In this document: positions 104 to 4,989 of the stretch, piece by piece
How the letters are laid out: each line of letters starts with the position of its first letter
Position numbering within the stretch: the first letter of the stretch is position 1
IMG/VR virus record: IMGVR_UViG_2698536458_000008
Location: 1 to 4,989 of that record
Reading direction: 5' to 3' (one strand)
Length of the DNA stretch: 4,989 nt
Source: a virus
Lineage: Duplodnaviria; Heunggongvirae; Uroviricota; Caudoviricetes
Translations under genes and position numbers: made by a program
Notes under the pieces: model-generated
Told to the model about the DNA's origin: nothing
The model's input: only the letters and a program-made list of their open reading frames with translations
The model's database searches: none

Positions 104-131
104 CTACAAAAAAGCCGGATTGCTCCGGCTT
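104..131 (-). terminator. Rho-independent terminator ending the minus-strand operon after the SSB-like gene
   Basis: On the minus strand: 8-bp stem AAGCCGGA / UCCGGCUU with loop GCAA, followed by a U-run (UUUUGU); it lies about 15 bp past the SSB-like stop codon (146-148). Confidence 0.6.
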
Positions 132-145
132 CTGTCACTCGTTGC

Positions 146-568
146 TTAAAACGGTATGTTATCCCCGTACGGATCATCATTCCCCGCCTGTTGTTTGGCC
201 CTGTTCAGTGCATCAGTGGCCTGCCCCTGTTGGCCTTTTTTACCGCCCGGTCGCGCCGTTCTGGCACTGATTACACTGTCTGCGATAACCTGCCAGCCCT
301 GCCGCGTTTCTCCGTTCTGGCCTGTCCACTGGCTTACCTGCATGTTACCCGCCACGCTCACCAGCTCGCCTTTCTGGTGCTTTGCCAGTGCGTCAGCCTG
401 TCTGCCAAACGCCAGGACGGATAACCATATCGTCGCCGTTCCGTCATCTGCCTGGCTGCACGGCAGGGGAACCGCCATACTCGCCATCGTCATTTGCGTA
501 CCCTTGCTGGTGGTCTTTAACTGCGGGTCAGCCACCAGCCGCCCGTAAGCCGCTATCTGTGCTGTCAT
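146..568 (-). CDS. ssb: Single-stranded DNA-binding protein (SSB family), 140 aa, accessory copy carried by the element
   Basis: OB-fold core collinear with E. coli SSB (IWLSVLAFGRQADALAKHQKGELVSVAGNMQVSQWTGQNGETRQGWQVIADSVI versus the [40 protein letters not shown] region), Gly/Gln-rich linker and a C-terminal tip ...DDPYGDNIPF resembling the canonical DDDIPF tail. GGAGAG Shine-Dalgarno 8 nt upstream; the ATG overlaps the upstream stop as ATGA (565-568). Confidence 0.85.
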   Translation of the reverse strand: MTAQIAAYGRLVADPQLKTTSKGTQMTMASMAVPLPCSQADDGTATIWLSVLAFGRQADALAKHQKGELVSVAGNMQVSQWTGQNGETRQGWQVIADSVISARTARPGGKKGQQGQATDALNRAKQQAGNDDPYGDNIPF

Positions 569-810
569 GCTGTCTGCTCTCCGGTTTTAACGTTGATGGT
601 TGTCACCTGTTCCGCTTCGGCAATCTCCCGTTCTGTCAGCGTGGCAAAGTTTGCCGCCGTCGTGGTCATGAATGCGCTTATCAGTTCGGGATGTGCTTTC
701 GCGTATCCTTCCCCGGCGTTGCGGTCGATGATTTTTATCGCCACCCTCAGCCAGTGTTCTGTCAAATCAAGGGCGTGAGATTGTGGTTTTTTGGCGTGCT
801 TCGTTGTCAC
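565..810 (-). CDS. Hypothetical protein, 81 aa, translationally coupled to the SSB-like gene
   Basis: ORF in the six-frame track beginning MTTKHAKKPQ; GTG start at 810-808 preceded by GAGG with a 7-nt spacer; stop overlaps the SSB start (ATGA). No family recognised by eye. Confidence 0.55.
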   Translation of the reverse strand: MTTKHAKKPQSHALDLTEHWLRVAIKIIDRNAGEGYAKAHPELISAFMTTTAANFATLTEREIAEAEQVTTINVKTGEQTA

Positions 811-854: not shown

Positions 855-1084
855 CCTTCACCTGTTCACCTTTTGCAATTTTCCCTTTTTATTCATGATG
901 TTAATGGGTTAACAGTTTCACAAAAACTATTCACCAACTGTTCACCACTGTTCACCCTTAAAGCTCAATAAAGAATCAAAAAGGTGAACAGTGAATAGTT
1001 TGGTGAACAGTTCATAAATAACTGTTCACCCTATAATATACTGATATAAAAGACATTTATTGCAGGGTGAACAGTGGTGAACAG
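855..1084. repeat. Iteron-type replication origin (P4 ori-like): TGTTCACC octamers in both orientations around an AT-rich core
   Basis: Direct TGTTCACC at 863-870, 939-946, 949-956, 1023-1030, with degenerate copies at 855-862 (CCTTCACC) and 928-935 (TATTCACC). Inverted GGTGAACA at 983-990, 1003-1010, 1066-1073, 1076-1083, with a degenerate copy at 991-998. Tandem copies are phased at 10 bp (939/949 and 1066/1076). A perfect 9-bp inverted pair GGTGAACAG(1003-1011) / CTGTTCACC(1022-1030) flanks an AT-rich spacer, followed by the AT-rich stretch 1031-1062. TGTTCACC is the type I iteron bound by the P4 alpha protein at ori and crr. The array sits immediately 3' of the primase-helicase gene. Confidence 0.75.
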
Positions 1085-1113: not shown

Positions 1114-2916
1114 TCATTTGTGACCTATTGCACATGATGGCATCCAGTCTTCTGAATCCTCTGTCAGGGTCACATTTGAACGCAAACCGTGCTTCGTTTT
1201 CCGTTTCATATACTCCCTGCCATATTCCGCCATTGCCCCCGGCATATCTTTACCGAAGCGCGTCAGTGTTACAGGTTTACCGAATCCGTGTGCCCTCATA
1301 TATGCCAGATAGGCGTGATAAAGATACCTGCGCGGACTGAACGGAATAATTTCGGCATTACCCACTAACAGACCATCACACATTACCGACGACATGAGAT
1401 AGCCGCAGAAGTCCACCAGCGAATCGCCCTCGCGTTTTATCACCAGAGCTTCTTCTGATTTCTGCTGCTCATACAGCAGGCGTTTAGCTTCGTCCTGGTC
1501 AGAAAAACGAGTAAGCAGGTGGCGAATCACAACCGCCAGCTCTCCTTCTATTTTTTCTGCCAGCATGGGGTCGCGTTCGTTCTCCGGTACAACTTCCGAA
1601 AAATTGAATATCACCCGACGACGTGAGATCCCCCCGCTGCGGTCACTGAATGACATGGCGTTATTGTTAACCGCCAGCACTACTGCCGGAATACGCGTTG
1701 AGTAGGGGGCTTTGTGTTTCGGGTCAATTGCCACCTTGTCACCGCCTGTAATGGCCTTAATCCCTGCCCCATCACCAGCGTAGCGGGTCATATCCGGCAT
1801 GATAATCAGCGAAAAGCCAACCACTAACGCGCGTTCCCTTGCATCTTCCAGCGCCTTCATGCTTGCCGATACTGTGTTGGCCTTACCCGCCAGCATGGTG
1901 CAAATCTCCGCCATCACGCTTTTACCACTTCCCCCTGGACCTGTTACCTCAATGAATAACTGCCAGTCGTACCGGTTCGCCAGCACCATGAATAATACAG
2001 CCAGTACGCGATCCGCCTTGCGGTCATTCTCAGCCACCGAACGGCGTAACCACTTCCAGAAATTCGGCGCATGTGTTGCCAGCGTTTCCCCCTCTGCTGG
2101 TGGGCTGAAAGGTAATTCACTGGCAATTAACAACCAGTCGTTTTTGTTATGCTCCCGAAAATTACCTGTTCTGGTATCAAATACCCCGTTACTGAATCCA
2201 ATCAGGTTACGGGCTGTATTCCCCATTACAGGCAAACTTAACTTCATGGTATCGACCGCCGATTTAATGGCGTTCTGCGAATAGCTGATCTCCGCATCAA
2301 TGAAAATCTGTGCCATAGCTCGCTGTAATTCTTTATCCTGTACTGGCTCCCATACAACGCCGTTGTAATGGTGAACAGTGTCAGAGTCAGCATGAATCGC
2401 CAGTTCACCGCCATAATGTGCCAGGAGAACTTCGCCGCGTTGACTTGCTCCCATCTGGTTAAGCGCCAGTGATGAAGCGTTATCGTCTTTTACCCGCTCT
2501 TTTTTCTTTACAGGCAGTTCAACTACCTTTTTCTTTTCCGCCTGCTCTGCCCGTTCACGTTCCAGATATTCGCGCCAGTTCTCCCGTTTCTGGCTGTGCA
2601 TTCCTTCAGGGTAATAATCAGCATCCCTGACACCTGCCGCTGCCAGTTTCTGCCCGATGGTATTAACAAGCCCCGGACGCAATAACCCCGCCTGGTAGAG
2701 ACGCACCCGATAGCGTCCGTCCGGTACGATTTGCAGCTTATCCAGTTCGGCAAGTTGTTGTTCTCCAAGCCAGACAGGAGGCACGCTGTCGCCAGCCAGT
2801 CGCCCGTCCTGTTCCTGCCACTGCTTCGCATGTGCCCACGCATCATTACCCGCAAAAATGATGACTTCCGTCATTTTGTCACGCGGCTGGTGTTTTAAAT
2901 TTGGCGCTTTTTTCAT
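1114..2916 (-). CDS. Replication initiator: P4-family primase / D5-like SF3 helicase, 600 aa
   Basis: Walker A FIEVTGPGGSGKSV, Walker B-like LIIMPDMTRYAGD, SF3 motif C-like VVLAVNNNA, and a D5_N-like region upstream (VLLAHYGGELAIHADSD...HYNGVVWEP). Preferred start is the ATG at 2916 (MKKAPNLKHQ...), with GGAGAGAG 5 nt upstream and an ATGA overlap with the upstream gene; the ORF track extends 5 codons further to a GTG at 2931. The cognate iteron array lies directly downstream. Confidence 0.9.
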   Translation of the reverse strand: MKKAPNLKHQPRDKMTEVIIFAGNDAWAHAKQWQEQDGRLAGDSVPPVWLGEQQLAELDKLQIVPDGRYRVRLYQAGLLRPGLVNTIGQKLAAAGVRDADYYPEGMHSQKRENWREYLERERAEQAEKKKVVELPVKKKERVKDDNASSLALNQMGASQRGEVLLAHYGGELAIHADSDTVHHYNGVVWEPVQDKELQRAMAQIFIDAEISYSQNAIKSAVDTMKLSLPVMGNTARNLIGFSNGVFDTRTGNFREHNKNDWLLIASELPFSPPAEGETLATHAPNFWKWLRRSVAENDRKADRVLAVLFMVLANRYDWQLFIEVTGPGGSGKSVMAEICTMLAGKANTVSASMKALEDARERALVVGFSLIIMPDMTRYAGDGAGIKAITGGDKVAIDPKHKAPYSTRIPAVVLAVNNNAMSFSDRSGGISRRRVIFNFSEVVPENERDPMLAEKIEGELAVVIRHLLTRFSDQDEAKRLLYEQQKSEEALVIKREGDSLVDFCGYLMSSVMCDGLLVGNAEIIPFSPRRYLYHAYLAYMRAHGFGKPVTLTRFGKDMPGAMAEYGREYMKRKTKHGLRSNVTLTEDSEDWMPSCAIGHK

Positions 2917-3267
2917 TTCTGCTCTCTCCACGCGGCAATCATGTTTTTCAGTTCCTGTAGTTTTTTATCAACATCCATACATGACACATGGTTATTTCTG
3001 GAAAGCGGGATTTCCCGCCTGAATCTGCTAATAAAGATCTCCACGTTCAGCGAACTATGAAATGAATAGCCATCACGAATAAAATACACACGGTCAAACA
3101 TCAGTTCTTTTACCGTTACTCTGTTACCGTTCNNNNNNNNNNNNNNNNNNNNNNNNNNNNNNNNNNNNNNNNNNNNNNNNACCGTTCTTATCCAGATAAA
3201 TAGCGCCGGGGATAATTTTGGGGTGTGCATAACCGCTGGCAGTCAAGCCAGATAAATACGTTCTCAT
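2913..3267 (-). CDS. Hypothetical small protein immediately upstream of the primase gene, interrupted by a 48-N run (3133-3180)
   Basis: C-terminal part after the gap (NGNRVTVKELMFDRVYFIRDGYSF...AAWREQK) is in the ORF-track frame and its stop overlaps the primase ATG (ATGA at 2913-2916). Before the gap, the frame from the ATG at 3267 reads MRTYLSGLTASGYAHPKIIPGAIYLDKNG; the 7-mer accgttc flanks the N-run on both sides (3126-3132 and 3181-3187), and removing the gap plus one copy joins the two frames into one continuous protein (...YLDKNGNRVTVKELMFD...). Alternative start in the ORF-track frame at 3230. Product unknown. Confidence 0.45.
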
Positions 3268-3885: not shown

Positions 3886-3957
3886 GTGGTATTCACATTA
3901 CATTTAGGTGAATACCATTTCAAGTCTTTTTTGGTATTCACTTTTGTATTACACTGC
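3886..3957. promoter_or_regulatory. Operator-like repeats (GGTATTCAC) in the promoter region upstream of the RHH gene
   Basis: GGTATTCAC at 3888-3896, its inverted copy GTGAATACC at 3908-3916 (11-bp spacer) and a second direct copy at 3933-3941, plus a degenerate GTATTACAC at 3947-3955, all within about 100 bp of the RHH start codon in an AT-rich region. Confidence 0.45.
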
Positions 3958-4635: not shown

Positions 4636-4845
4636 TTACACTGCCTTACCTGAATTAATGCGATCCCGGCTTTTAACCCATTCCATAACCTCGGACAGCA
4701 GCCACCCTACAGAACGACCGCCCAGATTAAGACGTGACGGAAAGCGCCCTTTTTTCTCCAGTTCGTAACGTGTAGTGCGGCACACTCCAGTTAACTTACG
4801 ACATTCATCCTCACGGATTACGCGATCTTCATTTATTTCACGCAT
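4636..4845 (-). CDS. alpA: AlpA/Vis-family phage transcriptional regulator (excisionase-like HTH), 69 aa
   Basis: MREINEDRVIREDECRKLTGVCRTTRYELEKKGRFPSRLNLGGRSVGWLLSEVMEWVKSR contains the AlpA-type motif (compare E. coli AlpA ...LGVKSVGWIEAEIDEWL). ATG at 4845 gives the family-typical ~70 aa; the ORF-track start (GTG at 4932) adds 29 residues of doubtful coding quality. Confidence 0.8.
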   Translation of the reverse strand: MREINEDRVIREDECRKLTGVCRTTRYELEKKGRFPSRLNLGGRSVGWLLSEVMEWVKSRDRINSGKAV

Positions 4846-4989
4846 ACAAAAACCTACATAAAAATTACGTATATAAACTTTTCTCTTAGCTGTAGATATA
4901 TGAGATCGGATATTACTTAGATTCTTTTTCACCTCTTAAATTAAAAACACAACCATGCTGGTAATGACTCCAACTTATTGATAGTGTTT

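Follow-up and report, generated by a model that had tools for sequence, protein, structure and literature searches.

Iterons of the P4 type in the proposed single, Rep-dependent replication origin of an EcCICFT073-family PICI

The window considered here, a stretch of 4,989 bp analysed at its full length, contains a replication initiator gene (rep), followed on the same strand by an array of short repeats, by the small conserved gene orf81 and by a gene for a single-stranded DNA-binding protein (SSB), and the coordinates of all of these features are gathered in Table 1. The initial annotation had placed the repeats between the large ORF and the orf81/SSB pair, and this is the position they occupy: the 605-aa ORF stops at 1114 on one side of them, orf81 starts at 810 on the other, and the first iteron lies 31 nt past the rep stop codon; the 81-aa ORF of orf81 in turn overlaps the SSB gene. 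For rep, an alternative ATG at 2916 would give a protein of 600 aa, and fits the MKxAPN start of most of the homologues. The exact sequence of Rep has no entry in the protein collection, and that of the SSB is listed as a multispecies protein of Shigella / S. sonnei (E. coli), so that the window would probably derive from an IS1-rich genome of Shigella or E. coli. Beyond the SSB gene, a hairpin read directly from the sequence and followed by a run of T would likely be the intrinsic terminator that closes the rep-ori-orf81-ssb unit.

Upstream of rep and on the same strand there are a DUF4222-like ORF, part of which is masked by a run of 48 N (3133-3180), and small and Icd-like ORFs, together with a divergent YlcI/YnfO gene and a gene of the AlpA family, AlpA being the hallmark activator of the Gram-negative PICIs (PMC6092414). 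The end of the window (4960-4989) is terminal sequence of IS1, with thousands of matches beside IS1 transposase genes, and therefore the AlpA-integrase side of the island from which the window comes has been interrupted.

Table 1. Features of the window, with positions counted from its first letter; site positions given as single numbers are the first base of the site.
Feature	Position	Strand	Description
Hairpin followed by a T run	106..134	-	GCCGGA-GCAA-TCCGGC, then TTTTTT; likely terminator
Single-stranded DNA-binding protein gene (ssb)	146..568	-	140 aa; Pfam SSB, E = 3.9e-16; TIGR00621; phrog_44
orf81	565..810	-	small conserved gene directly downstream of ori; phrog_1231
Whole iteron array, proposed replication origin	855..1083		two inverted arms with 12 sites of the TGTTCACC type
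Rep-distal arm	855..956		pair 855(+), 863(+); inverted single 907(-); triplet 928(+), 939(+), 949(+)
AT-rich centre, proposed DNA-unwinding site	957..982		26 bp, 77% AT, between the two arms
Rep-proximal arm	983..1083		triplet 983(-), 990(-), 1002(-); inverted single 1023(+); pair 1066(-), 1076(-)
Exact TGTTCACC sites within 855-1084	863, 939, 949, 1023	+
Exact TGTTCACC sites within 855-1084	983, 1002, 1066, 1076	-
One-mismatch site TGTTAACC	907-914	-
One-mismatch site TATTCACC	928-935	+
Two-mismatch site CCTTCACC	855-862	+
Two-mismatch site TATTCACT	990-997	-
rep, initiator gene	1114..2931	-	605 aa from GTG; SF3 helicase; Pfam D5_N, DUF5906, Pox_D5
C-terminal origin-binding domain (Rep residues 502-598)	1138..1428	-	match to PDB 1KA8, E = 2.3e-24
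Specificity segment KRKTKHGL (Rep residues 576-583)	1183..1206	-	changes whenever the iteron changes
N-terminal Toprim-like domain (Rep residues ~6-137)	2521..2916	-	without primase motifs
AlpA-family regulator/excisionase gene	4636..4845	-	Pfam Phage_AlpA, E = 2.1e-16; phrog_2790; longest ORF to 4932

The array is made up of 12 TGTTCACC/GGTGAACA sites within 855-1083, of which 8 are exact, 2 have one mismatch and 2 have two. Nine exact and three degenerate octamers had been counted at first; the total of twelve stands, but the division between the two kinds does not, because the ninth exact copy is found inside the rep coding sequence, and "at least nine exact" is thus one too many for the region. 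This copy, at 2370-2377 on the minus strand, lies in the codons for SDTVHHY, is shared by most close relatives at the corresponding position, and probably reflects a coding constraint. In the whole window the exact octamer occurs nine times where 0.24 would be expected, a number that was not reached in any of 200 dinucleotide-preserving shuffles, and the probability of at least 8 exact copies per 229 bp, calculated from base composition, is ~2e-22.

The start-to-start spacings of the iterons (8, 44, 21, 11, 10, 34, 7, 12, 21, 43, and 10) are mostly near whole helical turns, in agreement with the 10-bp phasing that had been noted. The two opposed clusters of the same description are likewise present, although each arm also has one site in the opposite orientation, and these arms mirror each other with six sites apiece, in the succession pair, 43–44 bp, inverted single, 21 bp, and triplet. 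The segment between them was correctly described as AT-rich, the window as a whole having 51% AT, and the two outer spacers, of 35–36 bp, have 75–77%. No DnaA box with up to two mismatches is found within 811-1113, which fits an initiation that does not use DnaA; in P4, too, initiation is not known to use DnaA. A full-text search of the literature for the TGTTCACC octamer returned unrelated primer sequences only.

The neighboring protein of some 600 aa had been proposed as the cognate initiator, and both its homology to P4 alpha and the covariation of its C-terminal part with the iterons bear this out. Residues 150-600 of Rep are 50% identical to residues 320-771 of alpha, that is, to its SF3 helicase and its origin-binding domain, the latter being the winged-helix domain of PDB 1KA8, and over its full length (596 aligned residues, N-terminal domain included) Rep is 48% identical to the Pri-Rep of EcCICFT073. 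Pfam gives, in addition, a weak PPV_E1_C match in Rep. The segment KRKTKHGL would presumably form the wing of the winged helix, an assignment that we only infer, the pLDDT of the AF2 model being 44.6 for the C-terminal DNA-binding domain.

The helicase and the winged helix are thus what the two initiators have in common, but the resemblance does not extend to their N-terminal parts, and it is here that the label "primase" is weakened. In P4, alpha joins a primase of the DnaG type to an SF3 helicase, with a winged helix at the C-terminus (PMC2777425), and has both a zinc finger and the EGYATA primase motif; in Rep these are replaced by a domain of 125 aa with a predicted Toprim-like fold, in which there is no EGYATA, no CxxC zinc finger and no conserved DxD. 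In the MAFFT alignment the FAGNDAW of Rep stands opposite the AEGYATA of alpha, and residues 1-319 of alpha have no sequence counterpart in Rep. The name itself is inherited from the helicase-domain family TIGR01613, the match of Rep being below the cut-off of that family, and a primase activity of Rep would be unlikely on these grounds. However, the domain keeps two invariant acidic residues, E22 and D30, which together with the Toprim fold would leave room for some catalytic role. This domain is more conserved between the Rep alleles of PICIs than the helicase part is, and it is also found joined to helicases of the RepA/AAA_25 type (P0132, P0178).

The relationship between the protein and its repeats can be followed through 80 species-level loci in GTDB genomes, in which the repeat word located 3′ of the gene varies by lineage while the layout remains constant. 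The words among these loci are TGTTCACC, TGTCTACC, TCTCCACC, TGTCC(G/A)C, TATCTACC and CTATACAC, and the word follows a short segment near the Rep C-terminus (residues 576-586 of the window protein). All the TGTTCACC/TATTCACC origins are paired with the segment [KR][RK][KHR][TS]K-x-G-[ILM]-[RQ]-[ST]-N, including that of P4, whose domain is 49% identical, and in the TGTTCACC origins the segment takes the form K-R-K-T-K-x-G-[IL]-R-S-N; every other word, TGTCTACC, TCTCCACC, TGTCC(G/A)C and TATCTACC among them, goes with a different segment, several of these having insertions of 1–5 aa. A related locus (IMG/VR UViG_2784132061_000002, 4690-4940) encodes a Rep 96% identical to that of the window, with 10 substitutions in residues 131-601, of which 5 fall at 577-583 (KRKTKHGL -> KKRTTAGV), and in its origin, which keeps the layout and is otherwise alignable to that of the window, the iterons are without exception TGTTCAT(T/C). 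Five residues and a two-base change in all twelve sites are what distinguishes the TGTTCAT variant from the TGTTCACC one, which constitutes a natural experiment on the specificity of an initiator for its origin.

A similar indication comes from 14 divergent origins of the same specificity, belonging to eleven genera (Raoultella, Citrobacter, Klebsiella, Pectobacterium, Xenorhabdus, Photorhabdus, and Zobellella among them), in which the iteron columns are 81% and the spacers 59% identical to the window (p = 4e-9), in an alignment that is partly anchored by the iterons themselves. Close relatives alone give a weak contrast (0.98 vs 0.95, p = 0.02), and it is for this reason that divergent relatives were needed for the comparison. 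That Rep and the TGTTCACC array would be binding partners is, judging from these sequences, well supported.

The kind of element to which this pair belongs is revealed by its more complete relatives. The closest complete copy in E. coli, in strain R18 (93.6% identity over 93% of the window), is an island of ~10.5 kb located between clpS and cspD, and cspD-clpS is among the listed att sites of E. coli PICIs. In this island an integrase and an AlpA-like HTH accompany the operon known from the window, with its iterons, orf81 and SSB, and there are also a protease-capsid fusion and DUF1441. The context of a PICI, which comprises an integrase, the AlpA activator, a unidirectional operon, and an island of 8–12 kb at a dedicated att site, is thus provided by AlpA and the operon in the window and by the integrase and the borders in the R18 copy. 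Of the 5,426 complete E. coli genomes, 669 carry the origin region, which is also found in several other enterobacterial genera. That the repeat might be shared with unrelated loci had been contemplated at the outset; it is not common to them, since 29 of 30 evenly sampled E. coli matches adjoin a gene for a "DNA primase family protein."

Two further relatives illustrate the range of elements that carry the module. In the record LR881103.1 (vB_KppS-Ant) a Rep that is 75% identical is followed by the same two-armed TGTTCACC origin (9938-11949), and as this 16.5-kb "phage" record encodes terminase, portal, capsid and head-tail genes, the replication module serves capsid-encoding islands too. NZ_CP148328.1 (pZ1323HEC0475-3) is a circular "plasmid" of 10,790 bp in a complete E. 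coli assembly, which consists solely of an island of this type, with int, alpA, rep, the iterons, the protease-capsid fusion and DUF1441, while orf81 and ssb are missing from it. The record could represent an excised island that replicates, in which case it would lend indirect support to autonomous replication, or else the assembly of an excised form that does not; either way, it keeps the origin without orf81 and ssb, and retention of the origin thus does not depend on these genes.

The type example of a Gram-negative PICI origin is that of EcCICFT073 (Fillol-Salom et al. 2018, ISME J, PMC6092414). The order of its genes is int, HTH, YlcI/YnfO, Icd-like, small ORFs, DUF4222, "DNA primase family protein," a gap of 288 bp, an ORF of 85 aa, and SSB, and the window has in common with it the succession alpA, YlcI/YnfO, Icd-like, DUF4222, rep, ori, small ORF, and SSB; a small gene equivalent to orf81 is found at the same place in both EcCICFT073 and EcCIIHE3034. 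The layout of the sites is also common to both, with a pair, 43–48 bp, an inverted single, 20–21 bp, a triplet, the centre, and then the mirror image. In EcCICFT073 the T(G/A)TCTACC sites are at 7011 and 7020, with the inverted one at 7068 and the triplet at 7088/7099/7108, and past the centre there are the inverted 7141/7152, a single at ~7174, and the pair 7219/7228.

The two differ in the iteron, which is TGTTCACC in the window and T(G/A)TCTACC in EcCICFT073, in the helicase and DNA-binding part of Rep, which in the window is closer to P4 alpha than that of the EcCICFT073 protein is, and in the morphogenesis genes downstream, which are a protease-capsid fusion and DUF1441 in the closest relatives of the window and a capsid and a decoration protein in EcCICFT073. 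For the latter island it has been demonstrated that a temperature-sensitive plasmid can be maintained by means of the rep-ori segment, an ability that deletion of rep or of ori abolishes or reduces (PMC6092414). The cloned-origin experiment has therefore already been carried out for the sister allele, and the functional evidence comes from an allele whose Rep is 48% identical and whose iteron is another one. The features of a PICI origin are found together in the window: a position directly 3′ of the initiator gene, mirrored arms round an AT-rich centre, a homologue of Pri-Rep, and, when the R18 copy is taken into account, the gene context of a PICI. The element is an EcCICFT073-type PICI and not a P4-like satellite. 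As for the stretch 855-1083, the comparative analysis indicates that it is, with high probability, the single Rep-dependent replication origin of a PICI of the EcCICFT073 family, in an allelic class that would have the DNA-binding specificity of P4 alpha.

The location of the array within what could be a transcribed unit deserves separate consideration. The initial annotation had supposed that transcription through ori may couple replication to the expression of the downstream genes. In a scan of the interval between rep and orf81, nothing resembling a terminator came up on either strand, nor anything resembling a promoter on the coding strand, a negative result that is weak, as the same scan missed the hairpin after ssb. 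Given also that the Gram-negative PICIs are transcribed in one direction (PMC6092414), co-transcription from rep to orf81-ssb through ori would be plausible. It could then be argued that the array is mainly an element of transcriptional control, with Rep acting on it as a roadblock or an operator for orf81-ssb, or that it serves to control copy number by handcuffing. The iterons of plasmid replicons often double as control sites. However, the deletion of the equivalent region in EcCICFT073 reduces the replication of the rep-ori plasmid (PMC6092414), pZ1323HEC0475-3 retains the array with no orf81-ssb left to regulate, and the design of two arms with an AT-rich centre is typical of origins, all of which makes such a principal role improbable.

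With regard to regulation, there are also three 9-bp GGTATTCAC repeats resembling weak iterons (3889 +, 3907 -, and 3934 +; window 3888-3942), situated where the promoters of the Icd-like operon and of the YlcI/YnfO gene diverge. Autoregulation by Rep through these repeats was considered and rejected, since their equivalents are not constant even between islands alike in Rep and iterons, and do not follow the iteron type: they are different in pZ1323HEC0475-3, whose Rep is of the same type, and they differ between CFT073 and IHE3034. They would therefore probably be the operator of another regulator of the island.

The resemblance of the array to P4, on which the initial annotation was founded, is real at the level of the sites. 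In X51522 the very octamer of the window, TGTTCACC, is annotated as the "ori type 1 repeat," and each arm of the window corresponds to the six-iteron core of the P4 ori in order, orientation and spacing, the distances being 10/11/22/43/10 in the P4 ori (9310-9413) and 7/12/21/43/10 in the rep-proximal arm; in a blastn comparison, window 900-957 aligns with P4 ori 9309-9367 taken as its reverse complement. (For the biochemistry of P4 we rely on the annotation of GenBank X51522, on PMC2777425, and on general knowledge.) The organisation, in contrast, is not that of an alpha-dependent P4 replicon, as had been claimed. P4 is bipartite, its ori lying upstream of alpha at a distance of 2.3 kb and its crr, which is duplicated, directly downstream of the gene, at 46 bp, whereas the window has one two-armed cluster. 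When P4 4291-4590 and 9310-9413 are compared with window 855-1083, the 120-bp unit of crr consists of a single, a triplet, 43 bp, and a pair. Of the P4 type II repeats there is no tandem CCACTTAAAG-type array, the scattered matches with two mismatches being at chance level, and sid, delta, psu, epsilon and cI, which P4 has, are lacking in the full-length relatives, the R18 island and pZ1323HEC0475-3.

These differences bear on a second interpretation, according to which the replicon would be bipartite in the manner of P4, with the cluster as the counterpart of crr, an enhancer required in cis, and the true start of replication in a second cluster elsewhere. The crr does have the same relative position and a similar set of sites, and the interruption by IS1 leaves the far side of the window's own island out of view. 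However, by a criterion applied identically to all (at least 4 sites with up to one mismatch), P4 alone has two clusters, while 17 other loci (the R18 island, vB_KppS-Ant, pZ1323HEC0475-3, EcCICFT073, EcCIIHE3034, and 12 others) have one, of 160–335 bp and mostly 200–260 bp, right after the initiator gene. These 17 include the alpha-length genes (~810 aa) of Xenorhabdus, Photorhabdus and Zobellella, which are also followed by an undivided two-armed cluster. The search for a second, crr-like cluster that had been suggested found none in any complete relative, be it the R18 island, the 16.5-kb vB_KppS-Ant, or the circular pZ1323HEC0475-3, and none among 80 IMG/VR loci taken together with as much as 6 kb of the sequence on either side; 79 of the latter have one TGTTCACC cluster immediately 3′ of rep, and the remaining one is the TGTTCAT variant. 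The contrast between one cluster in the 17 loci and two in P4 makes the organisation PICI-like and not P4-like, and the cluster of the window is equivalent to two full copies of the P4 ori module and not to the crr unit; the bipartite interpretation is thus very unlikely.

That the repeat would be foreign to replication, as a packaging site, a recombination site or a chance palindrome, hardly merits consideration: the miRNA hairpin matches that the E-value mode of Rfam gives across 912-1025 are weak and far below the gathering score (32 vs 150 bits), and are explained by the dyad symmetry of the array, while the octamer count is ~40-fold over expectation, the repeat covaries with the DNA-binding segment of the neighboring initiator, and the cos sites of EcCICFT073 are other sequences, resembling phage cosN (PMC6092414).

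If the array is the Rep-dependent origin that we propose, replication could proceed as follows. Upon induction, the leftward operon would be transcribed (the Icd-like gene, the small ORFs, DUF4222, rep, ori, orf81, and ssb), and the C-terminal winged helix of Rep would bind the twelve TGTTCACC sites, helically phased and distributed in the two mirrored arms of six sites. Each arm could then nucleate one hexamer of the SF3 helicase, and the two hexamers, head to head, would load on the AT-rich centre of 26 bp and melt it before moving outwards as they unwind the DNA, giving a bidirectional theta replication in which the SSB of the island itself would coat the unwound strands. As Rep is without the primase motifs of P4 alpha, priming would probably be supplied by the host, and this is the least certain step. 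The stoichiometry of binding, the loading of a double hexamer, the site of melting and the source of the primers are what we infer from the arrangement, and to read six sites per hexamer into it would be numerology.

There are parallels to such an arrangement outside the bacterial world. The E1 protein of papillomaviruses and the large T antigen of SV40 also combine a sequence-specific DNA-binding domain and an SF3 helicase in one initiator, and at their origins inverted sites flank an AT-rich segment at which two hexamers assemble head to head. In the window, by contrast, the DNA-binding domain is C-terminal and a winged helix, the sites are twelve and not four, and the double hexamer of Rep is a proposed assembly. 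Within the PICIs, the SaPIs and other Gram-positive islands likewise have ori directly 3′ of rep, with two sets of iterons round an AT-rich segment, and a pri-rep-ori segment that suffices for plasmid replication (PMC6092414); by description they are set apart, in that their initiators and iterons are unrelated in sequence to those of the window and in that transcription is divergent from the repressor gene.

An origin of this kind has already been published and functionally validated, in EcCICFT073, and the array of the window is consequently an allele of a known kind, which leaves the accepted picture of how such origins work unchanged. What goes beyond the published description, in which the Pri-Rep proteins of PICIs are called different from P4 alpha (PMC6092414), is that this allele has the helicase/DNA-binding module of alpha together with its exact iteron, and that the P4 ori is equivalent to one arm of the PICI type, with the crr unit looking like a condensed centre. 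It might be speculated, although the balance of probability is against so extended a claim, that P4 alpha and the PICI Rep recognise each other's TGTTCACC origins, that the two-armed origin in one piece is ancestral, the P4 ori (one arm) and crr (the condensed centre) being derived from it, and that the changes in the specificity segment represent an escape from cross-talk. The undivided clusters after the alpha-length genes of Xenorhabdus, Photorhabdus and Zobellella do make the split layout of P4 look derived.

In summary, the replicon of a very common island of E. coli is fixed by this assignment, and two likely errors of annotation are corrected, as the element is not P4-like and its "DNA primase" gene is without primase motifs. 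The replicons of P4 and of the PICIs, which have been described as different, become linked. If the mutual recognition suggested above were true, a resident P4 and an island of this type could cross-activate each other or compete for replication in one cell, and shifts of the specificity segment, such as that of the TGTTCAT variant, would be the way in which the islands escape this cross-talk.
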